A stretch of 64,000 nucleotides of DNA. Source: Myxococcales bacterium. Lineage in GTDB: Bacteria > Lernaellota > Lernaellaia > Lernaellales > Lernaellaceae. The stretch is from the NCBI GenBank assembly GCA_012517325.1, contig JAAYVF010000107.1, positions 3,032 to 67,031 of the forward strand. The letters are read 5' to 3'. Within the stretch, counting starts at the first letter, position 1. Every line of letters starts with the position of its first letter. Under the pieces are notes generated by a model. That model was given only the letters and a program-made list of their open reading frames with translations. It was not told where the DNA came from and ran no database searches. The translations under genes and the position numbers were made by a program. This document shows, in pieces, positions 25,367-64,000 of the stretch.

Positions 25367-25707
25367 TTCGTCCGCCTGCCGCCGTTTTCACATTCCACTT
25401 CCGCTCGGCATGGCCATCGATCCTAGCGGATCGAAGACCATGGCACCCCGAAAAGGATCGCACCCTTCGAGACGGACAAGGACCTCCTCAGACGGCGGTG
25501 AAAACCGGACACTTGTCAAATTTACGAAAACCTTTTCTTTTCCATTGGAAAACAAATGTCATTCAGCCTGCGGCAAGATCCACCCGACCGACTGGCGATG
25601 ATGCGTCTACCTATAGCCCCGACTGGCGAGAAGCGAAATTCGTGCTATTAAGGGGCAAACTTCGCGGTCGGCCGCGGCGCGGCCGGTCGCCGGACGAGGG
25701 AGCATCA

Positions 25708-40333: not shown

Positions 40334-40378
40334 GGCCGGCCTTTTTCCAATGGGTGCGGGAAAACCACAAGGAGTCGG

Positions 40379-44715: not shown

Positions 44716-44731
44716 TGATGGAGTGTCGATA

Positions 44732-48174: not shown

Positions 48175-48983
48175 ACGCCGCGCTGAAATGCCTGCTCCGC
48201 CTGGTGTTATTGTTCTGGCTGACACCCCTGCTCATGGGAATGGGTAGCGATCCTCTTGGCGAACCAGAGGCGACTGCGGCGATAACCGAGCCGCGAGGAG
48301 TTGAAGGAGTCGCCAAGAAACCGGTCGAGGAATGGATCGAGATCAAATCGGCAGGCGAAACGCGATGGGTGAAATTCGTTCCGGGCAATGAAGCGACCCG
48401 TCCCAATCGGGCGACGCGCCGTTTGAATCTGTTATCGGCTCGGCGAATGAATTGGCCGGAAGCCGTGGCGACTCCGACGGTTTCCCCCGCGGCGAGAATG
48501 CGCTACTTCTTCGAGGAAGACTGCCGGGCTTGGCTCGCCTCACTGACCGTGACCGATCCTACGCGCCTGCACGGCTTGTATGTGTTGATCCTCTTCCAGA
48601 CCCAGCGCATCAATGATATGTACGATTCCGTTTATGCCGATTATCGCCGAACCATGATGCCGGTCGGATTGCCGACTCCCGAGGCGGTCTATCCGGCCGA
48701 GACCTTGGCCACGCTGGTCGGCGCGTATCTGATGGCCGCGGATATTTCGGTGCGCGCCGGCTGGAAATTGGATCCGTTGCGCAAACTCGAAAAGAAGATT
48801 GCCGCTAGCGGGCTCAGCGATCCGATGGTATTGCGGCTGCCCTTTGGCGCTTACAATCCGCCTTATGCCGAATTGTTTCAGCCGTTTTCAATGACGATCG
48901 AAAAACGCTTGGATCCTCCGCCAGCGCCGGAAAACAGGACGGCAAAACAAGTTGTGGGAACGACAGACAAGGCGCCTGAATAA
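48171..48983 (+). CDS. secreted hypothetical protein (signal peptide), last gene of the module
   Basis: The start overlaps the upstream stop as ATGA. The signal peptide is MNAALKCLLRLVLLFWLTPLLMGMGS. 270 aa. Confidence 0.5.
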   Translation: MNAALKCLLRLVLLFWLTPLLMGMGSDPLGEPEATAAITEPRGVEGVAKKPVEEWIEIKSAGETRWVKFVPGNEATRPNRATRRLNLLSARRMNWPEAVATPTVSPAARMRYFFEEDCRAWLASLTVTDPTRLHGLYVLILFQTQRINDMYDSVYADYRRTMMPVGLPTPEAVYPAETLATLVGAYLMAADISVRAGWKLDPLRKLEKKIAASGLSDPMVLRLPFGAYNPPYAELFQPFSMTIEKRLDPPPAPENRTAKQVVGTTDKAPE

Positions 48984-49109: not shown

Positions 49110-50420
49110 ATGCAACCTGGCTACCTAATCGCTTGCGGTTTGTTGATCCTGCTGCTGATCTCCTTCAGCACAGGCTGCGGTACCGAAGGCTCTTCAACCG
49201 ACTCCGGACAATCTCGACCGACTGCCGATGATGACAATGATGATGACAACGACAATGACGACAACGACAACGATAACAACAACGATAACGACAACGACGA
49301 CAACGACAATGACGACAACGATGACAACGACGATACCACGCCCGCGGTTTCCATTCCCATCCTGGGCGTCGAGGTCGAGGACGCCACGAGCTATCGCCTG
49401 ATGAACCGGCTGCTGCCGATGAACACGGGCGATCTGTGGCCCGCCGCCTGGGCCGAGGACGACCGGCTCTATACCGCTTGCGGCGACGGGCTTGGTTTCG
49501 GATTGATTCCCGGCGATTTGGTGGTGTGCGTGGTCGACGGCAAACCGCCGGCGATGGCTGGGCACAACATTCCCGGGGCGCGCAGCGCGGCCGTCGCCGG
49601 CCTCTGGGGCCCGGAAATCCTGAAGCTGAACCGCAAGCCCACGGGGATGACCTGCGTCGACGGCGATTTGTACCTGTTTTCGCAAAACCTGGCCAACCGC
49701 TGGTCGGACGATCCGTTCGGGTATGCCGAAAACGGATCGGTTTCCGTCAGTCACGACCACGGTGCGACCTGGGATTACGATCACACCGCGCCGCTGTTCA
49801 CCGACCGCGTATTCACCACCGGCTTTTTTCTCGATTTCGGTCGCTGCGGCGAGCACGCGATCGACGACTTCGTCTACGTCTACGGCCTCGACGGCAACTG
49901 GCGGTGGTCCGAGACGGTTGCGCCCACCGAGCTCTTCCTCGCCCGCGTCCCGCGCGACCGAATCATGGAGCGATCGGCCTGGGAGTTCTACACCGGCGAG
50001 TCCCAGGGCGAACCGATCTGGTCGGCCGCGATCGCGGACAAGGCGCCGGTGCTGACCGACGAAACGCGCTACAGCGACGACTGGACCGGCGTGGCGCAAG
50101 GGAGCGTCGTCTTTTTACCGGCGTTGAACCGCTACCTGTACAGCACCCGGGCCAAAAACGAATGGATTTTTCACGAGGCGGAAAAGCCGTGGGGCCCCTG
50201 GACGAAAGTGACGGTGCGCGAATGGACCGGCGGCTGGACGGAAGAGTACCACGCCGGTTATCCGGTCACGATTCCCGCCAAGTTTCTGGACGCGGACAGC
50301 CGTGGCGGCTGGCTTTTAAGCAGCCTCTCCTCCAGCACCTTCGACGGCCTCTACTACAACATGAATTTCCGCCGGTTCGAGCTCGAGGTCGCCGCGGAAA
50401 CGAAAACGACGAATCATTAG
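49110..50420 (+). CDS. lipoprotein with poly-Asp/Asn linker and C-terminal domain of unknown function (possibly DUF4185/sialidase-like propeller)
   Basis: GGAAGGGG lies upstream. It opens MQPGYLIACGLLILLLISFSTGC|GTEG, with a ~40-aa (D/N)n linker and then a ~330-aa Trp-rich domain. Confidence 0.55.
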   Translation: MQPGYLIACGLLILLLISFSTGCGTEGSSTDSGQSRPTADDDNDDDNDNDDNDNDNNNDNDNDDNDNDDNDDNDDTTPAVSIPILGVEVEDATSYRLMNRLLPMNTGDLWPAAWAEDDRLYTACGDGLGFGLIPGDLVVCVVDGKPPAMAGHNIPGARSAAVAGLWGPEILKLNRKPTGMTCVDGDLYLFSQNLANRWSDDPFGYAENGSVSVSHDHGATWDYDHTAPLFTDRVFTTGFFLDFGRCGEHAIDDFVYVYGLDGNWRWSETVAPTELFLARVPRDRIMERSAWEFYTGESQGEPIWSAAIADKAPVLTDETRYSDDWTGVAQGSVVFLPALNRYLYSTRAKNEWIFHEAEKPWGPWTKVTVREWTGGWTEEYHAGYPVTIPAKFLDADSRGGWLLSSLSSSTFDGLYYNMNFRRFELEVAAETKTTNH

Positions 50421-50567: not shown

Positions 50568-51572
50568 TTAGTGATACGGGTTGGGCGAACCCTCGGGCTG
50601 GCGTTTGTAGCGCCGGTGAATCCAGTGATAGAAGTGCGGTTGGTCGCGGATGATTTTTTCGTACTGAACCAGCAGGTTGCGGGTGTTGACGCGCAGTTCC
50701 TCTTCCGGATCGTCGGGTAGCGATTTCCAAACGATTTCCTCCAGGACTTCCGTTTTGAATTTTCCCGGGCCGGTGGGATAGCTCCAGGACGCGAACACCG
50801 GAGCGCCGGTCGTTTTCGCCACCCAGGCCACCGAGCGCACCGTGGAGGCTTGCTTTCCCAGCCACTCGACGAATACGCCCTGCTTCTTTTTCATGTTCTG
50901 GTCGACGGTCATGCCGACGGCCGCGCCACTGGCGAGGGTGTCGAGCACGGCTTGCATCGATTCCTTGTGGGCGATGGTGCCGAAATTCATACCGGACCGC
51001 GCATCGACGATCAGGCGATCCATGACCGGATTGGAGATCCGTTTGGCGATGATCGAAATCGGGTATCCCGAGGTTCCCAGGCGGCCCGCCGAAAAATCCC
51101 AGGCGCCGATGTGCGCGCCCAGAAAAATGACGCCCTTGCCGCGCGAATAAGCCTCGTGGATCCGCTCCTCGTCGACCAACTCGAAATTGTCGCGCCAGAA
51201 GGCCTCGTCCATCAGCGGCACGCGCAGGTAATTGAGCACCTGGCGGCACAGGTTGATCAGCGATTGCTTGTAGATCTCATCCTTCTCGGCGGCGGTTTTG
51301 GTGTCGCCGAAAGCGATGTCGAGATTCACGCGGGCGACGGGGCGCCGGATTTTCAGCCAATAGAGCAAGAGGCCGACCCGCCGGCCGAACGCATAAGAGC
51401 CTTCCCAGGAAAGCCGCAGGACGATCGCCGTGATCAACCAGACGAAAAACCGGCTGAGGTAGTTGCCTTTGACGGCCGTGGTCTCGCGATAAGGCGCCAT
51501 GTATTCGCGCATCTTTTCGGCGGACCAGGGAAAGGTTTCGCGCCGCATGTTTTTTTCCGTTGCCATCGCCAT
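50568..51572 (-). CDS. lysophospholipid/lipid A biosynthesis acyltransferase (LpxL/HtrB/MsbB-like)
   Basis: YLSRFFVWLITAIVLRL is an N-terminal anchor, followed by GKGVIFLGAHIGAWD... (the HX4D-like acyltransferase block) and a conserved C-terminal region. The start is at M31 or M33 of the track ORF. Confidence 0.65.
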   Translation of the reverse strand: MAMATEKNMRRETFPWSAEKMREYMAPYRETTAVKGNYLSRFFVWLITAIVLRLSWEGSYAFGRRVGLLLYWLKIRRPVARVNLDIAFGDTKTAAEKDEIYKQSLINLCRQVLNYLRVPLMDEAFWRDNFELVDEERIHEAYSRGKGVIFLGAHIGAWDFSAGRLGTSGYPISIIAKRISNPVMDRLIVDARSGMNFGTIAHKESMQAVLDTLASGAAVGMTVDQNMKKKQGVFVEWLGKQASTVRSVAWVAKTTGAPVFASWSYPTGPGKFKTEVLEEIVWKSLPDDPEEELRVNTRNLLVQYEKIIRDQPHFYHWIHRRYKRQPEGSPNPYH

Positions 51573-51691
51573 GAAAAAAGCCCCCAAGGGAATTTTCGAA
51601 TCAGTTCGCTCACCCCCGCGCAAAAGCGGTTGATAATAAGGCCATGCATGGGGAAACACCATCGCGGGAATTTGCGTTACAATCCCCGGCC

Positions 51692-53047
51692 ATGAACGAG
51701 CGTTCCGCCGATCATCGCCCGCGCGTCCTGCTCGTGAATCCGTGGATTCACGACTTCGCGGCGTACGATTTCTGGGCCAAGCCCCTGGGCTTGCTGACGC
51801 TGGGCGGCTATTTGCGCGCGGCGGGAGCGGCGGTATCGCTGTTGGATCTGACCGATCCGTGTTCGCCCCATTTACCCGACCGGCAACGCCCGCGCCGCCG
51901 GGAAGGCGGCACCGGCAAATTCCCCGCGCAACGCCTGCGCCGGCCGGTCGTTTTGCCGTACATCAACCGTTTCTACCGGCGGTACGGGATTCCGCCCGAG
52001 GCGGCCGCGGCGGCGCTGCGTGAAATGCCGGCGCCCGACGCGGTGCTCGTCACCTCGATGATGACCTATTGGTACACCGGCGTGATCGAAACCGTCGCCC
52101 TGCTGCGCGCCCGCTGGCCGCGTACGCCGATCCGGCTCGGGGGCGTTTACGCGACGCTTTGTCCCGCTCACGCCCGCCGCGTTTCCGGGGCCGACGAGGT
52201 TTTCACCGGCGAGGCGACGCGGGTCGGGCCGCTTTTGGCCGAACGCCTGGGTCTGGCGTGGCCGGAATTCGATCCGCTGGCGCCGCCGCTGCCGGTTCAC
52301 GATCTGTATCCGCGCGCCGATGCGGCCGCGCTGCTCACCTCGCGGGGTTGTCCGAACGCCTGCCCCTATTGCGGCATCCGCCTGCTGGCGCCGGAATTCG
52401 TGCGCTATTCACCGGCGCGGGTCGAGCGGGAACTGCGCTGGTTGACGCGCGACCTGGGTATTCGCGACCTGGCGATTTACGACGACGCGTTTTTGCTGGA
52501 TCGGCCGCGCGCCCTGGGATTACTCGATATATTTGCCGGGCTCGGTGAGCCGGTGCGGTTGCATGCCGCCGCGGGTTTGTCGTGCCGCGGCGTCGATGCC
52601 GAGACGTCGCGGGCGATGAAGCGCGCGGGTTTCGCCACGATTCGCCTCGGGCTTGAAACCGCCGATCCCGACCGCCAGCGGGAGTTGGGTGGCAAGGTGA
52701 CGACCGCCGAATTCGAACAGGCGGTCGCGCATCTTTTGACGGCTGGTTTCCGGCGCGAACAGATCGGTGTTTACGTTCTCGCCGGGTTGCCGGGGCAGCG
52801 GCGGGCCGAGGTCGAGGATGCGGTGGATCGCGTTTTGGCGCTGGGCCTGCAACCGCACCTGGCGGAATATTCGCCGGTGCCGGGCAGCGCGCTGTTCGCC
52901 GCGGCCCAGGCGGTTTCGAAATACGATCTGAGCGATCCCTTGTTTCACAACCCGACGCTGTTGCCCGCCGCGGCCGGCGACCTGACACCGGCGGCGCTGG
53001 CGGAAATCAAGGTCCGCATCGCGGCTCATCCCGGAATCGTCCGCTGA
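51692..53047 (+). CDS. B12-binding-domain radical SAM protein (class B)
   Basis: An N-terminal Rossmann-like cobalamin-binding region (RVLLVNPW...VLVTSMMTYWY) is followed by CPNACPYC, a CxxxCxxC radical SAM motif. Confidence 0.7.
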   Translation: MNERSADHRPRVLLVNPWIHDFAAYDFWAKPLGLLTLGGYLRAAGAAVSLLDLTDPCSPHLPDRQRPRRREGGTGKFPAQRLRRPVVLPYINRFYRRYGIPPEAAAAALREMPAPDAVLVTSMMTYWYTGVIETVALLRARWPRTPIRLGGVYATLCPAHARRVSGADEVFTGEATRVGPLLAERLGLAWPEFDPLAPPLPVHDLYPRADAAALLTSRGCPNACPYCGIRLLAPEFVRYSPARVERELRWLTRDLGIRDLAIYDDAFLLDRPRALGLLDIFAGLGEPVRLHAAAGLSCRGVDAETSRAMKRAGFATIRLGLETADPDRQRELGGKVTTAEFEQAVAHLLTAGFRREQIGVYVLAGLPGQRRAEVEDAVDRVLALGLQPHLAEYSPVPGSALFAAAQAVSKYDLSDPLFHNPTLLPAAAGDLTPAALAEIKVRIAAHPGIVR

Positions 53048-53155
53048 TTGAGACCGGCCACCGCTTTTATCCCCGCGCCGCGAAAGATTTTTTTCGCCGA
53101 GTTGCCACTCGCGCCCGCTCATGATTAAATTTTGTCGAAATTCAAGGGGTTATCG

Positions 53156-54415
53156 ATGACTCAGACGCCAGCCGGAAATCAGTTGCCGCGCGTGGTGATC
53201 ATCGGCGGCGGTTTCGCCGGGATTCATGCGGCCAAAGCCTTGCGACGTGCGCCGGTCGAGGTGGTGGTGATCGACAAGAACAACCACCACGTCTTTCAGC
53301 CGCTGCTTTATCAGGTGGCGACGGCGGGCCTCGCGGCGGTCGATATCGCCACGCCGATCCGGGCGATTTTGCGCAAGCAGAAAAACGCGCGGGTGATCAT
53401 GTCCGAAGTGCGGGACATCGACCGGTCCCGGCGTGCGGTGCTGCTCGAACACGAAGAAATCACTTACGATTATCTGATCCTGGCCGCCGGCATGGTGACC
53501 AATTTTTTCGGCCATGACGAATGGCGCGACGTCGCTCCCAGCCTCAAGGATTTGCACGATGCGCTGGCCATGCGGCGGCGGATTCTGTCGGCTTTCGAGG
53601 CGGCGGAGTTGGCGAGCGATCCGGAGGAGGTCAAGGCGCTGCTGACCTTCGTGATCGTCGGCGCGGGGCCGACCGGCGTCGAGTTGGCCGGGGCGATCCG
53701 TGAAATCGCCGGGCAGGTGATGGTGCACGATTTCCGGCGCATCGACCCGAAGCTCACGCGGGTCATCATGGTCGAGGCTGCGCCGCGCGTCTTGCCGCCG
53801 TTCCCTGAAATATTGTCGGCCAAGGCGCAACAGGCCTTGGAAAAACTGGGGGTGGAAATCCGGCTGCAGACGATCGTGAAGAACATCACCCCCGAAGGCG
53901 TGCAAGTGGGCGACGAATTCGTGCCGTCCCGCACGGTTTTATGGACGGCGGGCGTCGCCGCGTCGCCGCTCACCAAGAGCCTGGGGTTGCCGCTCGACCG
54001 GGCGGGCCGGGTGTTGGTCAACGAGGACCTGACGGCGCCGGACGATCCGCGCGTTTTCGTGGCCGGCGATCTGGCTCATTTCGAAATCGGCGGCCAACCG
54101 CCGTTGCCGGGTCTGGCGGCGGTGGCCATGCAGGAAGGCGACCACGCGGCGCTCAACATCCGGCTGGACGTGGCCGGCAAGGCGCGCCGGCCGTTTCACT
54201 ATCTCGACCGCGGCAAGATGGCGACCATCGGCCGCTACCGGGCGGTCGCCGAGGTGTTCGGCGTGCGGTTCGCGGGCTGGCCGGCCTGGCTGGCGTGGCT
54301 GTTCGTCCACGTCCTGTTTTTGATCGGATTCCGCAACCGGTTTTCGGTGCTGGTGCAATGGGCCTATTCGTACCTGGCCGTCCGGCGCTGCGCGCGGCTG
54401 ATTCTCAAGCCTTAA
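53156..54415 (+). CDS. ndh: type II NADH dehydrogenase (NDH-2)
   Basis: RVVIIGGGFAGIHAAK is the first FAD/NAD dinucleotide-binding motif and FVIVGAGPTGVELAG the second. The C-terminus is hydrophobic. Confidence 0.8.
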   Translation: MTQTPAGNQLPRVVIIGGGFAGIHAAKALRRAPVEVVVIDKNNHHVFQPLLYQVATAGLAAVDIATPIRAILRKQKNARVIMSEVRDIDRSRRAVLLEHEEITYDYLILAAGMVTNFFGHDEWRDVAPSLKDLHDALAMRRRILSAFEAAELASDPEEVKALLTFVIVGAGPTGVELAGAIREIAGQVMVHDFRRIDPKLTRVIMVEAAPRVLPPFPEILSAKAQQALEKLGVEIRLQTIVKNITPEGVQVGDEFVPSRTVLWTAGVAASPLTKSLGLPLDRAGRVLVNEDLTAPDDPRVFVAGDLAHFEIGGQPPLPGLAAVAMQEGDHAALNIRLDVAGKARRPFHYLDRGKMATIGRYRAVAEVFGVRFAGWPAWLAWLFVHVLFLIGFRNRFSVLVQWAYSYLAVRRCARLILKP

Positions 54416-54584: not shown

Positions 54585-56705
54585 ATGAGACTCATCCGTC
54601 TTCTTCTCTGCGTGTCGTTGTTGCTGGTCCTGGCGGCCTGCGACGACGATTACGAGCCGCAAGACCAGTACCAGGATTCGCTCACCCGCGTCCACGTCCA
54701 GCAGACGTTCTTCAAGGACCAGCAGGGGCGCTACCTCTACCTCAACGGCATCAACCTGGCCGATCCGAAGAGCGGGCCGGTGGTTTGGGATCCCATTTCC
54801 TACGTCGGCAAGCCGTTCCCGGTGGACGAACTGGACAAGAATTTCCGGATCATCCAGCAGTTGGGCTTCAATTCGGTGCGGTTTCTCATTCAGTGGGAAG
54901 CGATCGAGCCCGATGAAAAGGGCGTCTACGACGAGGAATACCTCGATTACCTGGAAACCGCGGTGGCCAAGGCGGGCGAGTACGGCATCTACTGCCTGAT
55001 CGACATGCACCAGGACATGTTTTCGCGGCACCTGCTGAAGTACTTCAACGACGGCTCGGGCGTGATGGGCCTGGTGAACCCGGCGGAAATCGAGCTGGCC
55101 GAGCGGTACGGTTACAACAACAAGGTCAACGGCGACGGCGCGCCGCGCTGGGTGGTGCAGGCCGCGTTGCCCGAAAAGAACGTCGGCGGCCCGAAGTGGG
55201 GCCTGCCCTACGCGCTGGTCGACAACCCGAACGAGACTTCCGACGTGCTGCCCTGGACGAGCTGGTTCCTGAACGTCGGCACCTCGCTGGACGAGAACCG
55301 CTGCTACGCGGCGCTGTTCGCCGGCGACGTGGTCTGGCCCGACTATTTCATCGACGGCCAGAACCTGAAGGACTACCTGCAGGAGGCCTACGCCAATTCG
55401 TTCGCCCAAGTGGCGAAACGGCTGGCCGGTTATGACAACGTGCTCGGCTACGACATCATCAACGAGCCGGGCGGTGTGTTCATCATGCTGACCCTCTACG
55501 CGCTGCTTTACCGCGAGGCCGCGGCCAGCCCGAGCGGCGAACTGACGCCGTCGCAGGTCGAGGCGGCGCTCAACGCCTACCTGAAGGAAATGCGCGGCCA
55601 GGGCTTCCCCGAGGAGCAGAGCCAATTGCTGCGCGCGGTCCTGCTGGATTACGACCTGTTGCCGCACAGCAAAAGCGAGATCGAATCGTCGGGCTTCATT
55701 CCGGCGGCGGGCTCGCCCTATCGGCCCAACCTGTTCGCGGCCATCGCGCTCAACGCCAACTTCAACAAGACCTACCTGCAACCCTTCTACGAACGGATTG
55801 GCGCGGCCATCCAGCACGAGGATCCGAACGCGATCATCTTCTTCGAAACGATCACCGGCTTGCCCGACAAGGGCATTTCCGGCCAATGGGCGGCGCCGAT
55901 GACCCCGTTGCAGGGCATCGAGCAGCAGGTGTACGCGCCGCACAAATACGTCGATATCTACCCGAATATCGGCTTCAACCAGCCGCCGCGCGATTTCGAG
56001 GTCGGCGAAATCCGCTTCCGCGATTACGAGGGGCCGATCGACGAGGCGATCGATTACGCCACCTACAGCCTGGGCAATCCGCCGGTGGTGCTGGGCGAAT
56101 TCGGCGCGTACTTCAATTTCGGCGGCATCGACCAGGCGCGGGCGACCGGCTACGAGCTGTCGCAGTACATCATCGATCCGTATTACGAGGTCTACGAAAA
56201 GAAGCTGATGCACCGGATGATCTGGGCCTATTCGCACCTGAACAATTACGACAACGGCGACGGTTGGAACAAGGAGGACTTCTCGGTGGTGGACCCGGAC
56301 CTGAAGCCGCGCGGCTGGCAAGCGTATTCGCGCGCCGTGCCGCGCTTCACCAGCGGCCGGCTGCTGTCGATGCACTTCTATTCGCCGCTGCATTATTTCG
56401 AGCCGCGGCCGAACGAGCCGACGCCGTACCTCGAATTCGCCATGGAAATGGCGTCGAAGGAAACCACGGCGCCCACCGAAATTTACGTGCCGCCCCTGCA
56501 GTACACCGACGGCTTCTACGTGCGGATTTCCGACGGCCGCTGCTACTATGACCCGCACACCTACGTCCTCTACTGGTTCCCCGCCGCCGACGATCCCGCG
56601 ACGGTGCACGACATCCGGATTCGGCCGCCCTACGCGGACTACGGCGACGAGGATTGGGACTACTTCTTCAACGGCGACCAGGTGATCGAGGGGGTGCGCT
56701 CATGA
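54585..56705 (+). CDS. GH5 glycoside hydrolase lipoprotein, endoglycoceramidase-like
   Basis: It opens MRLIRLLLCVSLLLVLAAC|DDDYEP. It carries LIDMHQDMFS, DIINEPGG (NEP acid/base), VVLGEFGAY (nucleophile Glu) and APTEIYVPP, the last resembling the EGCase C-terminal motif. Confidence 0.65.
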   Translation: MRLIRLLLCVSLLLVLAACDDDYEPQDQYQDSLTRVHVQQTFFKDQQGRYLYLNGINLADPKSGPVVWDPISYVGKPFPVDELDKNFRIIQQLGFNSVRFLIQWEAIEPDEKGVYDEEYLDYLETAVAKAGEYGIYCLIDMHQDMFSRHLLKYFNDGSGVMGLVNPAEIELAERYGYNNKVNGDGAPRWVVQAALPEKNVGGPKWGLPYALVDNPNETSDVLPWTSWFLNVGTSLDENRCYAALFAGDVVWPDYFIDGQNLKDYLQEAYANSFAQVAKRLAGYDNVLGYDIINEPGGVFIMLTLYALLYREAAASPSGELTPSQVEAALNAYLKEMRGQGFPEEQSQLLRAVLLDYDLLPHSKSEIESSGFIPAAGSPYRPNLFAAIALNANFNKTYLQPFYERIGAAIQHEDPNAIIFFETITGLPDKGISGQWAAPMTPLQGIEQQVYAPHKYVDIYPNIGFNQPPRDFEVGEIRFRDYEGPIDEAIDYATYSLGNPPVVLGEFGAYFNFGGIDQARATGYELSQYIIDPYYEVYEKKLMHRMIWAYSHLNNYDNGDGWNKEDFSVVDPDLKPRGWQAYSRAVPRFTSGRLLSMHFYSPLHYFEPRPNEPTPYLEFAMEMASKETTAPTEIYVPPLQYTDGFYVRISDGRCYYDPHTYVLYWFPAADDPATVHDIRIRPPYADYGDEDWDYFFNGDQVIEGVRS

Positions 56706-58057
56706 AACGGATGCACGCGATTGCGGCCGGGATCTTGTTGCTCGGGATGCTCCTGACGCCGGCGTTCGGCGCGACGGCGGGCGAGCCGGCGGCGGCGACC
56801 GAGAACCTGCTGCCGGCGTTCGACATCTTCTTTCAAACCTACTTTTACGCGGCCAACGACCGCGATTTCGACCGGACCGAGCCCTTGTACGAGGCCAACG
56901 GCCAGAGCGTCGGCTACGTGCTGACCACGATGCGGCCGGGCCTGACCTGGCGGCCGGCGGAAATCCTGACCCTGCGCTATCAGCTCGAGGTCGGCGACAA
57001 CCTGTGGAGCCGCAACGATCCCTACGGCGACGATCCGTACTCTGAAGAAACGGCCGTCTTCCGGCACAAGGAAATCTGGGCCGAGGCCACGACGCCGAAC
57101 GGCAGACTGGGAACGCGGCTGGGCTTCCAGTATTTCTACGACCCCACCCATCTGGTGATCGACCGGCACATCGGCCTGGCCACGGCGTTTTACCAGGTCG
57201 GCGGCCAGCAGGTGACCGTCGGCGCGGGCCAGATTCCCGATCAGGTCTACGAGGGATTCGGCGAGGAAACCGACGGCCTGCGCCTGTCGGCGAACAATTT
57301 CGAACAGGACAATTTTCTGTTCGGCGCCTGGTCGCGCCATCCGCTGGGCGCGGGCGTGCTGTCGCCGGGCGTGTTTTTCAATTGGGATAAAACCGAAGTC
57401 GACCGGCCCAAGGGCGTGCTCAGCGTGGCGGCCAATTACCACGCGCCGCTGGGCCCGATCGTGAAACTGGACGTCGATCTGGTCGGCCAATACGGCCAGT
57501 ATTTGCGCGCCGGGCTCGACAACCGCGACGTCACCATGCTGGCCGGCGCGGCGCAGGCGAACGTGGACGCCGAATGGCGCCTGATCGGCCTGCGCTACAA
57601 CCTGCTGGCCTTCACCGCCGACGACGGCGACAAGCTCGATCAGTTCGACACCGGCTTCCGGTATTCGGGCTGGTCGAAGAGCGCCACGTTGATCCTGTCG
57701 CTCAACGAGCTGCACGACCAGTACGACAACGTCGACGAACGGGTCGCGGCGCAGGACGCCGGCCTGTTTCTGGCCGACCAGGAATTCGCGGTCAAGCCGA
57801 CCGAGGACGTGCGCCTGTTCCTGACGCTCGGCGCGGGTTTCGTGTTGGACGACACCAACACCGACGGCGAATCGTATCTCGGCACGGAAGGGCAGTTCGG
57901 CGTCGCCTGGTCGCCGATCCAGAAACACCTGACCTTCTCGCTGATCGGCGGCGGCCTGCTGCCGGGCGAGGCGGCGGGGCAGTTGCAGAACGCCATCGAC
58001 AAGACCGCCCACGACCCGCTCTATCAGGGCCAGGCGGCGATGACCGTAACGTATTAG
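56702..58057 (+). CDS. outer-membrane beta-barrel protein (putative porin/channel) coupled to the GH5 gene
   Basis: The start overlaps the upstream stop as ATGA. The signal peptide is MKRMHAIAAGILLLGMLLTPAFGA. Alternating hydrophobic strands are followed by a C-terminal ...AMTVTY aromatic terminus. Confidence 0.6.
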   Translation: MKRMHAIAAGILLLGMLLTPAFGATAGEPAAATENLLPAFDIFFQTYFYAANDRDFDRTEPLYEANGQSVGYVLTTMRPGLTWRPAEILTLRYQLEVGDNLWSRNDPYGDDPYSEETAVFRHKEIWAEATTPNGRLGTRLGFQYFYDPTHLVIDRHIGLATAFYQVGGQQVTVGAGQIPDQVYEGFGEETDGLRLSANNFEQDNFLFGAWSRHPLGAGVLSPGVFFNWDKTEVDRPKGVLSVAANYHAPLGPIVKLDVDLVGQYGQYLRAGLDNRDVTMLAGAAQANVDAEWRLIGLRYNLLAFTADDGDKLDQFDTGFRYSGWSKSATLILSLNELHDQYDNVDERVAAQDAGLFLADQEFAVKPTEDVRLFLTLGAGFVLDDTNTDGESYLGTEGQFGVAWSPIQKHLTFSLIGGGLLPGEAAGQLQNAIDKTAHDPLYQGQAAMTVTY

Positions 58058-58204
58058 CCGCGGGGCGTGTAACTTGCGGTCCCCGGTCGCCGGGGTATAA
58101 TTCGGCCAACCGCGAGTTGAACGGATTTCGATGTGTCACCGCGCCGGGCGGCGTGGCGAATGATAGGCGAAAGGTCCAACAATCCAAAAGGCGGTCAAGT
58201 TCCC

Positions 58205-60037
58205 ATGACAGAGACCATGACACATTTGACCTGGATCGATTATTCGATCATGGCGATCTACCTCGCGTTCGTGCTGGGCATCGGGTTTGCGCTCAAGCGC
58301 TACACCAAGTCCAGCAACGATTTCTTCTTGTCGGGCCGGTCCATTCCGGCCTGGATCACGGGATTGGCGTTCATTTCGGCCAACCTCGGGGCGCAGGAAG
58401 TCATCGGCATGGGCGCGATGGGCGCGAAGTACGGCATTGCCACGAGCCACTTTTATTGGATCGGCGCGATTCCGGCGATGGTGTTCGTCGGCATTTTCAT
58501 GATGCCGTTTTATTACGGCTCGCGCGCCCGGTCGGTGCCGGAATACCTCAAGCTGCGCTTCGATGAAAAAACGCGCGGCCTGAACGCCATTTCCTTCGCG
58601 GCGATGACCATCTTCTCCTCCGGCGTGTCGATGTACGCGATGGGCAAGCTCTTCGAGCTGCTGCTGGGCTGGGACTTCAACATGGCAATCCTGGTCGCGG
58701 GCGCGATCGTGCTCGTCTACATCTTCCTGGGCGGCTTGACCAGCGCCATCTACAACGAGGTCTTGCAGTTCTTCCTGATCGTCTTCGGCTTCCTGCCGCT
58801 GGTCTACATCGGCCTGAAAAAAGTCGGCGGCTGGTCGGGCATCAAGGAAAAGTTGATGGTCGCGGCGACGGCGAACGGCCTGCCGGCGACCGCCTACACC
58901 TCCTCCTGGTCGCACATGGGCAGCGCGGCGACCAACCCGATCGGCGTCGAGTGGTTCGGCCTGGTGATGGGCCTGGGCTTCGTGCTGTCGTTCGGCTACT
59001 GGTGCACCGACTTCCTCGTCGTGCAACGCGCCATGGCCGCCAATTCGATGTCGGCCGCGCGCCGTACCCCGCTGATCGCGGCGATTCCCAAGATGCTGTT
59101 CCCCTTCCTGGTGATCGTGCCCGGCATGATCGCCATGGCCGGCACCGCGCATTACGTCGCCAACTGGAGGCCGGCCTCCGATCCGGCCGCCGCCGTCGCC
59201 ACCGTGGACGGCCAGCCGGTGGTCGCCGCCGCACCGGTCGAGGAAGGCCTGATTCCGCCGAAGAAGGACGCCGACGGCAAGCCGATGGTCGACAAGCGCG
59301 GCCGGGTGCTGCTCGATTACGATCTGGCGACCCCGAAAATGCTGATGACCCTCATGCCGGCCGGTTTGCTTGGTTTGGGCCTGACGGCGCTGCTGGCCTC
59401 GTTCATGTCGGGCATGGCGGGCAACGTCACGGCGTTCAATACGGTGTGGACCTACGACATCTACCAGAGCTACATCAACAAAAAAGCCGGCGACGAACAC
59501 CTGCTCTGGATGGGGAGGTTCACGACCGTCTTCGGCATTGTCCTGAGTATCGGGGCGGCCTACGTCGCCAAGTCCTACAACAACATCATGGACCTCTTGC
59601 AGCTCGTGTTCGCCTTCGTGAACGCGCCGCTCTTCGCGACTTTCGCGCTGGGCATGTTCTGGAAGCGGACGAGCGGCCACGGCGCGTTCTTCGGCCTGCT
59701 TTCGGGCACGCTGGCGGCGGCCGCGCACCACGGCCTGACCCTGCCGGCCGGCGCGGCGGTCGGCTTCAAGGGCGGCTACCTGGGCCTCCTGGAGACGTAC
59801 CCGAGCGAGATGTCGCAGAACTTCTGGACGGCGATCTGGGCGTTCACGGTTTGCATCGTCGTTTCGATCATCATCAGCTTGTTCACCAAGCCGCGGACCG
59901 ATGCGGATATGAAGGGCCTGGTTTACTCCCTGACGCCGAAACCCGAGGACGATTCGAAATACTGGTACCAACGGCCGGCCGTGCTGGCGATCGTGGTGCT
60001 GGTGTTGACGGCCGTTCTCAATCTCATCTTCTGGTAG
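58205..60037 (+). CDS. sodium:solute symporter family (SSS) transporter
   Basis: 610 aa with about 13-14 TMs and SSS-like blocks (FFLSGRSIPAWITGLAFISANLGAQEVIGMGAMG...). Confidence 0.8.
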   Translation: MTETMTHLTWIDYSIMAIYLAFVLGIGFALKRYTKSSNDFFLSGRSIPAWITGLAFISANLGAQEVIGMGAMGAKYGIATSHFYWIGAIPAMVFVGIFMMPFYYGSRARSVPEYLKLRFDEKTRGLNAISFAAMTIFSSGVSMYAMGKLFELLLGWDFNMAILVAGAIVLVYIFLGGLTSAIYNEVLQFFLIVFGFLPLVYIGLKKVGGWSGIKEKLMVAATANGLPATAYTSSWSHMGSAATNPIGVEWFGLVMGLGFVLSFGYWCTDFLVVQRAMAANSMSAARRTPLIAAIPKMLFPFLVIVPGMIAMAGTAHYVANWRPASDPAAAVATVDGQPVVAAAPVEEGLIPPKKDADGKPMVDKRGRVLLDYDLATPKMLMTLMPAGLLGLGLTALLASFMSGMAGNVTAFNTVWTYDIYQSYINKKAGDEHLLWMGRFTTVFGIVLSIGAAYVAKSYNNIMDLLQLVFAFVNAPLFATFALGMFWKRTSGHGAFFGLLSGTLAAAAHHGLTLPAGAAVGFKGGYLGLLETYPSEMSQNFWTAIWAFTVCIVVSIIISLFTKPRTDADMKGLVYSLTPKPEDDSKYWYQRPAVLAIVVLVLTAVLNLIFW

Positions 60038-60055
60038 AAAGCGGAGGTAACGACA

Positions 60056-60265
60056 ATGAAACTCGATATCCGCGTGCCGATCGGCGGCATGTTCACGATT
60101 CTGGGTGTGATCCTGACGATCTTCGGGCTGGTGACCGCGGGCAACGCCGAAATGTATGCCCGCTCGGCCAATATGAACGTCAACCTGGACTGGGGTGTCA
60201 TCCTGCTGATCTTCGGCGTCCTGATGCTCATCCCCGGGTTGCGGGCGAACAAAAAGACTCAGTGA
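60056..60265 (+). CDS. small two-TM membrane protein downstream of the SSS transporter
   Basis: 69 aa, with two hydrophobic helices (MFTILGVILTIFGLV / GVILLIFGVLMLIPGL). Confidence 0.5.
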   Translation: MKLDIRVPIGGMFTILGVILTIFGLVTAGNAEMYARSANMNVNLDWGVILLIFGVLMLIPGLRANKKTQ

Positions 60266-60290
60266 CAAAGCGTAACCGTTAAAACAAACG

Positions 60291-60327
60291 GCCCTCGCTC
60301 CGGTGGGAGCGAGGGCCGTTTTCGTTA
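60291..60327. terminator. bidirectional Rho-independent terminator between convergent transcription units
   Basis: GGCCCTCGCTCC-ggtg-GGAGCGAGGGCC is a 12-bp perfect stem, followed by GTTTTCGTT on the plus strand and by GTTTGTTTT on the minus strand. Confidence 0.8.
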
Positions 60328-60335
60328 AGCGAAAA

Positions 60336-61682
60336 TCAGAACTTGATGTCCATCAGCGCCTGGCCGCCGTAGATTGGATCCTTGGCGGCGAGGTCGATTT
60401 CGTTGCGGACCGCGGCGCCGGATTCGCCCGGCCAGAGGCCCGCGCCCAGCACCGTGAACGAGACATACGGCGCGTAAGGCGTCCAGGTCAGGCCCAGGTC
60501 GCCTTCGACGCCCACCGTGGCGTCATCGGCCAATTCGTCGGTTTGGATCGCCCGGCCGTAACCGACGACGCCGAACAGCTCCAGGCTTTCGATCGGCAGG
60601 TAACCGGCTCGGACGTCGGCCAGCAGCATGCCCGCGTGCTGGCGCGCGACGCGCTCGTCGAGGTTGTCGTACTGGTCCTGCAGCTCGTTTTCCGACAAGA
60701 GCAGCGTCGCGCTCTTCGACCAGCCGGAATAGGTGTAGCCGGTGTCCAGCAGGTCCGCGCGGTCGCCGTTGTCGCCCGAGAAGAAGAGGGCGTTGCCGCG
60801 CAGATTCGCCTTCGTCCACTCGGCCAGCACGCCGATCTGCGCCGCGTAGCCGAACAGGTCGACATCCTTGTTGTCGATGCCGCCGTTGCGGAACAGGCCC
60901 CATTGCAGGGCCAGATCGGCGTCGAGGGCGACGTGCCGGCCGAGCGGGCCGTCGGCGTGCACGCAGGGGTTGACCAGGTTCTTTTCGCGGCCGACCTCGG
61001 TCTTGTCGTTCCAGCCGTAAATCGCCGGAACAATCGCCCAATCGCCGGCGCGCATTTCGGCCTGGAACGCGTAGATGAACGAGTCGTGCTCGAAGTTGTT
61101 CTGTTCCAGTTCGGTGGCGGGCGGTTCGGCGGTGGTGCCTTCGTAAACCGAATCGGGCATCATCGCGCCCAGCAGCACCAGGCGGAGGTTGTCGAGGTCG
61201 TAATAGAGTTGCAGCGCGCCCAGGTGCCGGTCGAGGAACAGGTGGGTCGGGTCGTACAGGTATTGGTAGCCGGTGCGGACGCCGACCTGACCGGGCAGCA
61301 GCACGTCGGCCCAGATTTCGCGGGTCTGGAAGACGGGCACGTCGGCGGCGCTCGGGTCGCGTTCCTCGGCGTTGTTGCGGCTCCAGAGGTTTTCGCCGAT
61401 CTGCAGTTGATAGCGCACGAGCACCTGCTCGATGGGGTTCCAGGTCATGCCCGGCCGCAGGATCGTCGCGAAATAGCCGACCGTCTGGCCGTTCTCGTCA
61501 TAGAGCGGATCGGTGCGGTCGAAGTCGCGGTCGTTCTGGATCAGGAAGAAATTCCGGAATTCCACGTCGAACGCCGGCAGGTTCAACTCGGTGGAACCCT
61601 CGTTCTGCGCCCGGGCCGAACCGACGGTTCCGACCAACAGCAGCGCGCCGGCGAGCAAAAGCAGCAAGGTCGATTTGTTCAT
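60336..61682 (-). CDS. outer-membrane beta-barrel protein, paralog of 56702..58057
   Basis: The start MNKSTLLLLLAGALLLVGTVGSARA|QNEG (rc cat 61680-61682) overlaps the upstream GH5 stop. The protein ends ...LMDIKF. It is collinear with its paralog. Confidence 0.6.
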   Translation of the reverse strand: MNKSTLLLLLAGALLLVGTVGSARAQNEGSTELNLPAFDVEFRNFFLIQNDRDFDRTDPLYDENGQTVGYFATILRPGMTWNPIEQVLVRYQLQIGENLWSRNNAEERDPSAADVPVFQTREIWADVLLPGQVGVRTGYQYLYDPTHLFLDRHLGALQLYYDLDNLRLVLLGAMMPDSVYEGTTAEPPATELEQNNFEHDSFIYAFQAEMRAGDWAIVPAIYGWNDKTEVGREKNLVNPCVHADGPLGRHVALDADLALQWGLFRNGGIDNKDVDLFGYAAQIGVLAEWTKANLRGNALFFSGDNGDRADLLDTGYTYSGWSKSATLLLSENELQDQYDNLDERVARQHAGMLLADVRAGYLPIESLELFGVVGYGRAIQTDELADDATVGVEGDLGLTWTPYAPYVSFTVLGAGLWPGESGAAVRNEIDLAAKDPIYGGQALMDIKF

Positions 61683-63802
61683 TGGCGTCCCTCCAACATC
61701 TTTTCGCCGTCGAAGTAGTAGTTCCAACTCGAATCGCCGTAATCGTCGTACGGCGGCCGGATGCGGATCGTGTGGCTGACGTTCGGGTCGTCGTCATAAG
61801 GATACCAATATAGGATTCCCCGCTCGGGATCGTAGAGGCAGCGGCCGTCGGAAACGTAGACGTAGAAGCCCTGGGCGAATTTCGCCTTCGGAATGGTGAT
61901 TTCGGTCGGCGCCGACGATTCCAGGCCGAGCATCTCCAGATTGAATTCCTGGTAGGGGGTCGGTACGCCGGGCCGCGGGTCGTAGTAGGCCAGCGGCGAG
62001 TTGTATTTGTAGGAAACCAGCCGGCCCGAGGTGAAGCGCGGCGTGATGCGGCTGTAGGCGTCGCTGGCGCGCGGCTGCTGGTTGGTGTCGAGGATCGAGA
62101 AGTCCTCGCGGTTCCAGCCTTCGCCCCACAGCGCGGTGTTTTCGCTGGAGTAGCACCAGATCGAGCGGTTGATCAGGTTCGCCTCGAGGGTGTCGTAATA
62201 GTTGTCGATGATGTGGGCCGGCACGATGAAATCGGATTCGGTCGCTTTCTCGATGCCGCCCAGGTTGAAGTAGGTGCCGAACTCGCCGAGGATCACCGGC
62301 ACGTTGCCCAGCGAGAAGGACGCCTGCTTGATCGCGCCGAGAATTCCCTCGCTGTAGTCGCGGAAACTGATTTCGTCGACGGTGAAGTCGCGCGGAGTCG
62401 GGTTGTAGCTGAGCACGAACGGATAGACGTCGGCGTAGTAGTGCGGTCCGAAAGCCAGTTGGTTGATGCCCTCGGGCGCGAGCATCGGCGTGATGTAAAA
62501 GCCGAACAACCCGGCCGTGTCGTCCAGCCCGATCGTCGACTCGATCACGATGATCGCGTCCGGATCTTCCGCCTGCACGGCCTGGCCGACCCGGCTGAAG
62601 AACGGCTGCAGGAAGTTCCGGTTGAAATTCGAGTTCAGCCCGAACGCCGCCGTCAGGTCGGGCTTGTAGGGGCTTTCGCCGAGCGGGAAGCCCGACGCCT
62701 CGAACTCGTCGGGAGTGCGCGGCAGTTCGACCCAATTCAGATACAGGTCGCGCATGATCACCAGGTCGCTTTCAGGCATGCCGCTGCGGCGCAATTGTTC
62801 CAGGACGATGTCGACCTGGTCTTCCACCTGCTGCTGGCTCAGAACGTTGTCCGTCGTGTCCTTGGCTTCCTGGTAGAGCAGGGCGTAGAGCGTATAGACG
62901 ACGTACAGGCCGAGCGGTTCGTTGATCAGGTCGTAGCCCAGCACGTTCGGATACGACTTGACGCGTTTGACGATCTGGAGCCACGCGTTGGCGAAGGAAT
63001 CCTGTAGGTAGTCCTGAACGTTCTTGCCGTCCACGAGGTAATTGGGATAAAGCGTTTTGCCCGCGAAGAAGGTGGCGGAACAGCGGGCGACGTCGAGCGA
63101 CAGGAAATTGTCGACTCCCCAATGCAGGGGCAGCATGTCGCTGGTTTCGCGCTGGTCGCCGACCAGCGAGCGCGGCAGGCCCCACTGCGGGCCGCCGACG
63201 TTCTTTTCGGGCAAGCCCAGTTGCACCACCCAGCGCGGCGCGCCGTCGCCCTGGATCACGTCGTTGAACGGCGGCGAGGCGAAGTCCTCGAGGCCGGGCA
63301 GGGTCTCCAGTGCGTTGCCGCCGGAGTCGTCGACGTAATATTTGCGCAGCCAGCGCGAAAACAGATCCTGGTGCATGTCGAGCATCACGTAAATGCCGTA
63401 ATCATTGGCCTTGGCGACGATCTGCTCGATGTAATCGAGATATTCCTCGTCGTACTCGCCGCTGACCTCGGGCTCCACGCCTTCCCAGATCACCAGCAGC
63501 CGGATGAAGTTGAAGCCCAGGTCGCGTAGCTTGGCGAAGTTGGCGTCGGCCTCGTCCAACGGAAACGGCTTGCCGGTGTAGGAGACCGGGTCGACCGTCG
63601 CGGGCAGTTTGGTGCTGCCGCTGACGTTGGCGCCGTGGAGAAAGAGGTAGCGGCCGTATTCGTCTTTGAAATAATTGTTTTGGGTGTGGATGCGGGTGAT
63701 GCTGTGGGTGGCCTGATCGTCGAGGGTGTAATCGTCCTCGGCGCAGGCGATGCACCACAACAGGCATCCGAGAGCAAGGAATAGGGTGAGGCTTCGACGC
63801 AT
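61679..63802 (-). CDS. GH5 glycoside hydrolase lipoprotein, endoglycoceramidase-like, paralog of 54585..56705
   Basis: It opens MRRSLTLFLALGCLLWCIAC|AEDDY and shows the same LDMHQDLFS, LINEPLG, VILGEFG and APTEITIP blocks. Confidence 0.65.
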   Translation of the reverse strand: MRRSLTLFLALGCLLWCIACAEDDYTLDDQATHSITRIHTQNNYFKDEYGRYLFLHGANVSGSTKLPATVDPVSYTGKPFPLDEADANFAKLRDLGFNFIRLLVIWEGVEPEVSGEYDEEYLDYIEQIVAKANDYGIYVMLDMHQDLFSRWLRKYYVDDSGGNALETLPGLEDFASPPFNDVIQGDGAPRWVVQLGLPEKNVGGPQWGLPRSLVGDQRETSDMLPLHWGVDNFLSLDVARCSATFFAGKTLYPNYLVDGKNVQDYLQDSFANAWLQIVKRVKSYPNVLGYDLINEPLGLYVVYTLYALLYQEAKDTTDNVLSQQQVEDQVDIVLEQLRRSGMPESDLVIMRDLYLNWVELPRTPDEFEASGFPLGESPYKPDLTAAFGLNSNFNRNFLQPFFSRVGQAVQAEDPDAIIVIESTIGLDDTAGLFGFYITPMLAPEGINQLAFGPHYYADVYPFVLSYNPTPRDFTVDEISFRDYSEGILGAIKQASFSLGNVPVILGEFGTYFNLGGIEKATESDFIVPAHIIDNYYDTLEANLINRSIWCYSSENTALWGEGWNREDFSILDTNQQPRASDAYSRITPRFTSGRLVSYKYNSPLAYYDPRPGVPTPYQEFNLEMLGLESSAPTEITIPKAKFAQGFYVYVSDGRCLYDPERGILYWYPYDDDPNVSHTIRIRPPYDDYGDSSWNYYFDGEKMLEGRQ

Positions 63803-63937: not shown

Positions 63938-64000
63938 ATGCGTCGTTTGCATTGGTTGATGCTCGTGTTTCTGCTGGTGCTGTTTGCGGCTGCCTGCGAC
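63938..64000 (+). CDS. N-terminus of another lipoprotein (truncated by the window end)
   Basis: GGAGG lies upstream. It reads MRRLHWLMLVFLLVLFAAAC|D... with lipobox AAAC and Asp at +2. Confidence 0.5.
   Translation, partial: MRRLHWLMLVFLLVLFAAACD

Follow-up and report, generated by a model that had tools for sequence, protein, structure and literature searches.

A GH5 lipoprotein and outer-membrane barrel locus of a Lernaellota bacterium as a candidate hexose-harvesting system for glycolipid-like beta-glycosides

In this study, we analysed a stretch of 64,000 nucleotides from an uncultured Lernaellota bacterium (the window; assembly GCA_012517325.1, contig JAAYVF010000107.1, positions 3,032 to 67,031). 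Near its right end, two paralogous cassettes, A and B, each join a lipoprotein of glycoside hydrolase family 5 (GH5; GH-A and GH-B) to an outer-membrane beta-barrel protein (OMP-A and OMP-B). On balance, we consider it probable that this locus is a hexose-harvesting system for amphiphilic beta-glycosides, most likely monohexosyl lipids, from which the sugar is clipped and imported. Unit 1, on the plus strand, would comprise GH-A, OMP-A, an SGLT-like symporter and a small membrane protein, up to a hairpin. Unit 2, on the minus strand, would comprise GH-B and OMP-B, together with a divergent BPI/LBP-like lipoprotein. The candidate substrates are glucosyl- and galactosyl-ceramide, steryl glycosides and galactosyl-diacylglycerol, with decaying or prey biomass as the source. 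The GH would split such a substrate into a beta-hexose and a lipid aglycone, and the co-translated barrel would carry across the outer membrane either the released hexose (if the GH is surface-exposed) or the amphiphilic substrate (if it is periplasmic). The symporter would then import the hexose, a role that a glucose/galactose ATP-binding cassette (ABC) importer would take in other genomes. In unit 2, the BPI-like protein would extract the lipid substrate or present it to GH-B. In addition, a lipoprotein resembling neutral ceramidase, encoded next to a second BPI-like copy, would process the ceramide in two sister genomes (loci L007 and L012).

The gene order was taken from the list of open reading frames (ORFs) and from public gene calls (ENA ERZ928041 k127_68437, which is locus L001). 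On the plus strand there are GH-A (54585..56705, 706 aa), OMP-A (56702..58057, 451 aa), a gene of the sodium:solute symporter (SSS) family (58205..60037, 610 aa, with the start as called on the public contig) and a 69-aa protein with two predicted membrane helices (60056..60265, both an ORF and a public call). These genes are followed by a hairpin (60286..60321), beyond which OMP-B (60336..61682, 448 aa) and GH-B (61679..63802, 707 aa) lie inverted on the minus strand. The gene of the 604-aa BPI/LBP-type lipoprotein is divergent from GH-B, with 135 bp separating the two starts; its first part is found at 63938..64000 of the window, and the full gene at 19354-21168 of L001. In both cassettes, the ATG of the barrel gene overlaps the stop codon of the GH gene by 4 nt (ATGA), and Shine-Dalgarno-like sequences precede both GH genes. 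An earlier reading of the letters alone (the sequence-only reading) had described two ATGA-coupled cassettes at 54585..58057 (+) and 60336..63802 (-), with a sodium:solute symporter and a small membrane protein between them and a bidirectional terminator separating the convergent units, and all of these points were confirmed. The hairpin has a perfect stem of 16 bp, flanked upstream by an A-run and downstream by a U-run. It folds at -35.4 kcal/mol (z = -6.78), and 0 of 200 shuffles folded equally well; a simple terminator scan had failed to pick it up, and folding confirmed it. The likeness between the paralogs far exceeds chance, with 50% identity over 705 residues for GH-A and GH-B (724 bits) and 44% identity over 429 residues for OMP-A and OMP-B (E = 4e-134), and the DNA of the two cassettes shares nine patches in mirror order that are 71-81% complementary. 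The promoter scan yielded 1 site against 2.0 expected and thus gave no information, and the tRNA and Rfam searches of the window gave zero matches. A search within the window found no ceramidase-like gene, galK, UDP-sugar pyrophosphorylase, epimerase or glucose ABC gene.

The first line of evidence for the proposed function comes from the GH5 enzymes. GH-A matched PF00150 at 2.1e-20 and PF18564, the GH5 C-terminal domain of endoglycoceramidase II (EGCase II), at 2.3e-9, and the PF00150 scores of the two GHs were 73.8 and 86.7 bits against a gathering cut-off of 23.5. Furthermore, the blocks (L/I)DMHQD, (I/L)INEP, LGEFG and APTEI(Y/T)(V/I)P, to which the sequence-only reading had drawn attention, were all found in GH-A and GH-B. 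When a profile of 107 GH sequences was searched against PDB, the best match was SglA (2e-61), followed by Sgl1 (6.5e-54), EGCase II (9e-31), and EGCase I and EGALC (about 2e-24). The AlphaFold2 model of GH-A is a TIM barrel with a predicted local distance difference test score (pLDDT) of 95.4, and a Foldseek search with this model gave the same order: SglA (8exd, 3e-36), Sgl1 (1e-35), EGCase II (2e-24) and EGALC (5e-19), with ordinary cellulases far behind. All close structural relatives are glycolipid hydrolases, and the nearest ones are exo-acting. By both profile and model, the two enzymes are assigned to the glycolipid-hydrolase branch of GH5, nearer to the fungal steryl-beta-glucosidases than to the Rhodococcus endoglycoceramidases. 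The existing database label of more than 100 metagenomic relatives, 'cellulase family glycosylhydrolase', would be corrected by this assignment.

The active site is well preserved. In GH-A, the acid/base is E294, the nucleophile E505 and the cap tryptophan W561. The catalytic pair N293-E294 and E505 are invariant in the 107 sequences and align with Sgl1 E270/E520 and with the motifs of EGCase II, whose acid/base and nucleophile are E233/E351 (PMC8497620). In total, H142, N293, E294, E505, W547, W561 and E564 are invariant, and in a HMMER alignment these columns fall on Sgl1 H142, N269, E270, E520, W570, W584 (the cap) and E587; the Sgl1 residues in turn fall on the DMHQD, INEP, GEFG, IW and GDGWNKED motifs of GH-A. 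Previous work showed that K47, H142, N269, E270, W570 and E587 bind glucose in Sgl1, that its nucleophile is E520, and that its Trp cap (W584) blocks the acceptance of more than one sugar (PMC8497620). Six of these seven binding and cap positions (K47, H142, N269, E270, W570, E587 and W584) match invariant GH columns, and the seventh, K47, corresponds to GH K63, which is at least 90% conserved and whose alignment is uncertain. The span from acid/base to nucleophile is 210 residues in the GHs, 250 in Sgl1 and 118 in EGCase II. Because the 210-residue insert is located at the position of the Sgl1 cap, the GHs are predicted to have an Sgl1-like cap. Each GH5 is thus best described, from alignment and model, as a putative lipid-anchored retaining beta-glycosidase with intact NEP acid/base and GEFG nucleophile. 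Since single-sugar residues like those of Sgl1 are found together with monosaccharide importers next door, the evidence points to an exo-beta-hexosidase rather than an endo enzyme.

Both GHs carry a signal peptide ending in a lipobox Cys, and this Cys is at least 90% conserved among the 107 relatives. The residues after the lipid-anchoring Cys are acidic (CDDDY and CAEDDY). Acidic residues at this place direct surface export in Bacteroidota and inner-membrane retention in E. coli. By analogy, the acidic stretch could mean either surface export or inner-membrane retention of the GHs, depending on which of the two is used.

As for subfamily, GH5_12 holds the fungal glucosylceramidases (EGCrP1-type) and a mainly bacterial clade, and the EGCases belong to GH5_27 to GH5_29 (PMC3526467). 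The GH family described here, which is about 20% identical to Sgl1/SglA, may be a separate, unnumbered subfamily beside GH5_12. Within it, the only fixed differences between A- and B-clade enzymes are H149W, N179D and F598Y in a small sample, too few to argue about specificity.

The importers encoded beside the GH genes are the second line of evidence. The window symporter matched PF00474 (4.5e-59, 200.8 bits) and TIGR00813 (243.1 bits against a cut-off of 184), and its top PDB matches were SGLT1 (1.3e-57), SGLT2 and the Vibrio vSGLT (5e-52). It is assigned on this basis to the SGLT branch of the SSS family, with a hexose as the predicted substrate. A distant metagenome-assembled genome (MAG; L013) encodes a GH, a barrel, an SSS protein 47% identical to that of the window and then a 76-aa small membrane protein, which shares 28% identity with the window 69-aa protein in the like position (pairwise E = 1e-6). 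Small genes also lie 3' of the SSS gene at P0100 and L017. The symporter is present in relatives of about 40% identity, and the barrel was confirmed there in L013 and L017.

In six loci (L003, L004, L005, L007, L008 and L009), the gene directly 3' of the barrel is that of a MalK-type ABC ATPase rather than an SSS gene. A complete ABC set, consisting of the ATPase, a substrate-binding protein (SBP) and two permeases, is found in L004, L007 and L008, and L009 has all four up to the contig end; L003 has the ATPase and SBP followed by other genes, and L005 the ATPase only. The SBP of L007 matched the glucose/galactose-binding protein of Thermus (2b3b) at 1.6e-98, and the Pseudomonas glucose-binding proteins (5DVF family) came next at about 1e-52. 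Genes of the Leloir pathway recur as well. The L013 unit is flanked by epimerase, UDP-sugar pyrophosphorylase and galactokinase (galK) genes; the P0100 locus consists of GH, SSS and small protein genes, with galK-galM-galT 2.5 kb off; galT is near the L017 unit; and an epimerase gene is near the P0049 locus. Because two unrelated monosaccharide importers interchange and the Leloir pathway recurs, the gene content argues that the product of the GH is a free hexose. In addition, the mutarotase (galM) fits a retaining beta-glycosidase that frees the beta anomer. In L003 (4689-9724) we also observed, 3' of the GH, barrel and ABC genes, a 920-aa MMPL/RND-type transporter and a barrel with a weak DUF1302 match. 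These two might form a transport pair for hydrophobic compounds, with the lipid aglycone as cargo.

The barrel is the constant partner of the GH. We used nine genome loci and further look-ups, which gave 13 cassettes with DNA to examine, and the barrel gene was directly 3' of the GH gene in all 13, including relatives that are 34-40% identical (L013 and L017). The 4-nt overlap was found in the window, L003, L004, L005, L012 and the P0049 locus; the last, known without its DNA, has an unannotated 445-aa gene 3' of the GH, and at the P0100 locus, also without DNA, an unannotated 474-aa gene is 5' of the GH.

Both OMP-A and OMP-B have a signal peptide and an aromatic residue at the C-terminal end. 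No Pfam, NCBIfam or PDB sequence match was obtained for the barrel, either singly or as a profile of 26 members. A scan of the genome collection with OMP-A alone gave zero matches and an alignment-based scan succeeded; only 25 barrel clusters were found in the word-indexed search, many of them on contigs equal in length to contigs with GH homologs. As the sequence-only reading had recommended, the structure was predicted and the strands counted: the AlphaFold2 model of OMP-A (pLDDT 80.8) has 18 long strands. The best Foldseek match was AlgE (3rbh, 2.6e-14, with a template modelling (TM) score of about 0.6), followed by Campylobacter MOMP, ChiP, OccK/OccD and LamB (maltoporin). The most conserved motif, SGWSKS...DQYDNxDER, is in a segment of 50 residues between strands 13 and 14. 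Among the DNA patches shared by the two cassettes, the one encoding this segment (repeat I1) is conserved best. We infer that the segment turns inward and constricts the lumen. The barrel is thus predicted to be of the 18-strand substrate-channel type, neither OmpA-like nor FadL-like, and its sequences appear to form a family without annotation so far. The possibility that the two OMPs are generic OmpA/porin paralogs unlinked to the GHs was considered and rejected on the predicted 18-strand fold and the strict linkage to the GH.

The third line of evidence concerns the 604-aa lipoprotein divergent from GH-B. Its orthologs, with 45-52% identity, are also divergent from GH-B in L007, L010, L011 and L012, and a BPI-like lipoprotein was found beside all five B-type loci having upstream sequence and beside none of five A-type loci. 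When the protein was searched alone, its N-terminal Ig-like domain was the sole match, and a profile of 11 sequences found nothing; 4 of the 11 orthologs gave weak LBP_BPI_CETP_C matches. A profile search then yielded 1416 relatives, giant proteins included. Among 66 full-length relatives, 13 matched the Pfam BPI C-terminal domain (best 8e-12) and 4 the N-terminal domain, and the profile of these 66 sequences, with the protein of the window locus included, matched human BPI (1ewf, 6e-25; BPI residues 54-455) and LBP (4m4d, 3e-24). We therefore predict that the 604-aa lipoprotein is a bacterial lipid-binding protein of the BPI/LBP fold (double TULIP). A bacterial BPI-like protein that binds lipids, TipA of Bdellovibrio, has been reported recently (bioRxiv 10.1101/2025.09.09.675085).

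Several observations were made around this gene. The full-length architecture has more than 1,000 metagenome relatives and represents a large, essentially unannotated bacterial family, and giant proteins (1,000-5,500 aa) contain 10-30 copies of the Ig-like domain of the lipoprotein. The BPI-like gene is followed by the gene of a 442-aa lipoprotein, which has a very acidic linker and lacks any Pfam match, and then by tsf and rpsB (L001 21344-22121, beyond the window; L015 6540-9931). In L012, tsf is a few kb upstream of the BPI-like gene. The position of the B cassette looks syntenic, since tsf is nearby in the window contig and in L012.

In L012 (19687-21060) and L007 (18982-20238), a lipoprotein resembling neutral ceramidase (457 aa) adjoins a second BPI-like copy, and this pair is 7-9 kb from the B cassette. 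Its match to PF04734 (25.4 bits, E = 7e-6) is below the gathering score of 32.1 and covers the N-terminal 190 residues alone, and its PDB matches are Pseudomonas neutral ceramidase (2zws, 3e-4) and the human enzyme (4wgk, 0.009). If real, it would represent a small, divergent bacterial ceramidase family.

The trees of both proteins split into matching A and B clades. GH-A is 53-62% identical to the A-type proteins of other genomes, GH-B is 59-66% identical to its B-type orthologs in L007, L008, L010, L011 and L012 (the last being Ca. Lernaella stagnicola), and OMP-B is 47-57% identical to its orthologs in L007, L008, L010 and L012. In one MAG, the A-type and B-type cassettes are on separate contigs (L006 and L010). 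The duplication is old because the orthologs of each type are closer than A is to B (50%). A recent local duplication was therefore rejected, given that the within-type identities exceed the A-B identity and the two types occupy separate loci. The locus had been described as an inverted duplication; the mirror arrangement of paralogous cassettes was upheld, but the idea of a local event was not, since the A and B lineages are old and found at separate loci elsewhere. The sequence comparisons indicate that A and B are old paralogs and that the convergent layout in the window is one of several arrangements. The two are kept together in several lineages, probably for different aglycones or sugars. 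Tandems of the form GH-GH-barrel, with 4-nt overlaps at both junctions, were also seen in L004 (3859-9466) and L005 (5650-11257). Their GH copies all belong to the A clade, and here the enzyme gene was duplicated a second time, independently and with no copy of the barrel gene.

It should be noted that several points weigh against a hexose-harvesting system for monohexosyl lipids. The identity of the GHs to Sgl1/SglA is only about 20%, and the exo call has aligned residues and neighbour genes as its basis. The sugar is ambiguous, as the conserved residues bind glucose in Sgl1 and the neighbourhoods of distant relatives suggest galactose. The hydrophobic aglycone comes from two sources, fold kinship and the BPI-like neighbour, and the A cassette has no lipid-handling neighbour. 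Furthermore, the 604-aa lipoprotein (P0146) by itself has no BPI match, and the link was made by way of a profile built from relatives that are 19-46% identical. The ceramidase-like matches are below threshold, and such a gene was searched for in the window and not found there.

Despite these points, hexose harvesting from amphiphilic beta-glycosides is still our preferred reading of the locus. Tentatively, and with clearly less confidence, it could be extended to an undescribed bacterial glycolipid utilisation system, in which a BPI-fold lipoprotein pulls monohexosyl lipids (glucosyl- or galactosyl-ceramide, steryl glycosides, or galactolipids of plants and algae) from foreign membranes, the capped GH5 clips the head-group, and a barrel of a new 18-strand family, physically coupled to the GH5, passes the amphiphile or the sugar through the outer membrane. 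In such a system, A and B would be specialised by aglycone, and many Lernaellota-like and Myxococcota-type anaerobes that live on dead biomass or prey would carry it.

Four other explanations were weighed. The first is salvage of soluble plant or microbial beta-glucosides or galactosides with non-lipid aglycones, for example glycosides of phenolics or flavonoids, or galactosides of short length. A yeast flavonoid beta-glucosidase belongs to GH5_12 (PMC3526467), the A cassette and the distant loci show no lipid-handling neighbour, and the Leloir genes suit the use of galactosides in general. However, every close structural relative acts on lipids, the big cap insert is typical of Sgl1 (PMC8497620), and the B cassette is accompanied by a BPI-fold protein and by ceramidase-like neighbours. 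In addition, a dedicated lipoprotein enzyme with a special barrel exceeds the usual needs for soluble glycosides. Thus, we consider salvage of soluble glycosides improbable.

A second explanation is envelope maintenance, in which the enzymes, the barrel and the BPI-like protein would remodel or recycle the cell's own outer-membrane glycolipids and the freed sugar would be salvaged. It is true that every part belongs to the envelope, that lipids are moved by BPI-fold proteins, that a gene for a lipid A acyltransferase is 3 kb upstream, and that the B cassette adjoins the housekeeping tsf-rpsB genes in two genomes. Yet the repeated tight coupling to sugar importers of the high-affinity type and to sugar kinases is a catabolic signature, the importer type is swapped while the GH-barrel pair is kept, and no genes of glycolipid biosynthesis are linked. 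This explanation is, in our opinion, quite unlikely.

The sequence-only reading had likened the GHs to bacterial endoglycoceramidase, and a true endoglycoceramidase system is the third explanation. Here the GH5s would free whole oligosaccharides from complex glycosphingolipids, and the barrel and symporter would take these up. One part of this comparison stood, namely GH5 with PF18564 and relatives that hydrolyse glycolipids: PF18564 is the C-terminal domain of EGCase II, the APTEI(Y/F)xP block is common with EGCase II, and EGCase I, EGCase II and EGALC are significant by both sequence and fold. The strict label did not stand. The NCBIfam equivalog for EGCase I (NF051847) gave 73.2 and 67.5 bits against a cut-off of 700, with the N-terminal 120 residues alone aligning, and the region of EGCase II past the nucleophile fails to align with the GH profile. 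Moreover, the steryl-glucosidases are ahead by 10-30 orders of magnitude, the cap Trp that limits Sgl1 to one sugar is invariant (PMC8497620), the partner importers are of the monosaccharide type, and no further exo-glycosidases for the breakdown of oligosaccharides were found in any locus examined. We therefore rejected the strict endoglycoceramidase label, and we give the corresponding system little chance.

Synthase-dependent secretion systems, such as those of alginate, cellulose and Psl, carry a hydrolase or lyase (AlgL, BcsZ and PslG). An exopolysaccharide secretion module with an AlgE-like export pore and a periplasmic glycanase, to which this usual pairing and the best fold match of the barrel would lend some weight, is very improbable, as no synthase, glycosyltransferase, co-polymerase or TPR scaffold is found by the window cassettes or most other loci (one GT2 gene upstream in L017 being the exception), the Pfam family Alginate_exp is absent in 26 of 26 barrel members at E up to 1, the uptake channels OccK, ChiP and LamB reach similar TM scores, and importers and galactose catabolism genes are linked instead.

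Other features of the window were also recorded. Three genes directly upstream of GH-A (50568-54415) encode an acyltransferase of the lipid A type (-), a B12-binding radical SAM enzyme (+) and a dehydrogenase of the NDH-2 type (+). In other genomes, the cassette has none of them as a conserved neighbour. At 49110-50420 (+), a DUF4185 lipoprotein has a long Asp/Asn-rich low-complexity linker after its lipid-anchoring Cys. The DUF4185 family includes endo-D-arabinanases that cut mycobacterial arabinan (PMC10115798), and this lipoprotein may be another enzyme against the envelopes of other microbes. At about 38780-41521 (+), malate synthase and isocitrate lyase genes (the glyoxylate shunt) are adjacent and followed by an aldo-keto reductase gene; the pair would suit growth on fatty acids or acetate. 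From about 42842 to 48983 (+), five consecutive genes (457, 167, 550, 597 and 270 aa) have no Pfam match. The G+C content of the first half of this block is 0.50-0.53 against about 0.62 elsewhere, and the block may be foreign or fast-evolving. The sharpest G+C dip of the window (0.47), at 24001-26000, covers sequence just 5' of a glutamine synthetase gene and a 121-aa ORF and reaches into them.

A large pool of the carbon in decaying biomass is held in glycolipids, among them galactolipids from plants and algae as well as plant and fungal cerebrosides and steryl glycosides. We found no dedicated bacterial uptake locus for glycolipids in the literature. If the proposed function is true, the GHs would be bacterial equivalents of the steryl-glucosidases and glucosylceramidases of fungi, the barrel would be a new outer-membrane family having a defined genetic partner, and a poorly understood bacterial BPI-like lipid-binding protein would gain a natural context. 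If it is wrong, the locus would still be a well-conserved sugar-salvage module of an uncultured (digester) lineage, of modest interest.

Finally, we compared the locus with known systems. The best sequence and fold matches of the GHs, Sgl1/EGCrP2 of Cryptococcus (7LPO) and SglA of Aspergillus (8EXD), share with them a TIM barrel plus C-terminal beta-sandwich and a big insert between acid/base and nucleophile, and Sgl1 also shares the hexose-binding residues and the single-sugar Trp cap (PMC8497620). However, the fungal enzymes are cytosolic, whereas the GHs are bacterial, secreted and predicted to be lipid-anchored, with about 20% identity to them. The GHs also differ in that their genes share an operon with those of the outer-membrane barrel and of a sugar importer, and their sugar may be galactose. 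EGCase II (2OSW), EGCase I (5CCU) and EGALC (6JYZ) of Rhodococcus (GH5_28/29) resemble the GHs in their GH5 and GH5_C domains, the APTEIxxP block and glycolipid substrates (predicted for the GHs), and their target-normalised TM scores against the GH-A fold are 0.69-0.78. In contrast to the GHs, which have the cap Trp, the long insert and linked monosaccharide importers, these enzymes are about 480 aa long, have an open, uncapped cleft and release oligosaccharides.

With respect to the envelope proteins, the gene of OprB clusters with glucose ABC importer genes in Pseudomonas. OprB and GtsABCD are thus like the loci of the relatives, in which an outer-membrane channel gene is clustered with a CUT1-type importer. 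However, the sequences of OprB and the window barrel are unrelated, and in our loci the first partner of the barrel is a glycosidase, with importers of differing type. AlgE and the monomeric channels of the OprD/Occ or ChiP type have 18 strands, as predicted for OMP-A, and a similar size (Foldseek 1e-14 to 1e-8, TM about 0.55-0.62). Unlike them, the window barrel has the SGWSKS...DQYDNxDER segment and another genetic context, and no sequence similarity to them was detected. The profile alignment of the 604-aa lipoprotein spans nearly the full length of human BPI and LBP. It differs from BPI, LBP and TipA in being lipid-anchored, in having an extra N-terminal Ig-like domain and in being paired with a glycosidase gene of glycolipid type.

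The sequence-only reading had likened the arrangement to a polysaccharide utilisation locus (PUL). Like the SusC/SusD-type PULs of Bacteroidota, the locus combines the gene of a lipoprotein enzyme with those of an outer-membrane transporter and of an importer in the inner membrane, and the recurrent inner-membrane sugar importer supports the comparison. It holds as an analogy only, however, as no SusC/TonB-dependent transporter or SusD was found among the called genes with Pfam matches around the locus. Moreover, no regulator was identified by the cassettes, and the apparent target is one head-group sugar, not a polysaccharide. Literature searches on GH5_12 in bacteria and on endoglycoceramidase/ceramidase operons turned up no account of such a locus. 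The parts are assigned to known superfamilies (GH5, SSS, BPI-fold proteins and 18-strand barrels), and it is their combination that appears to be new.

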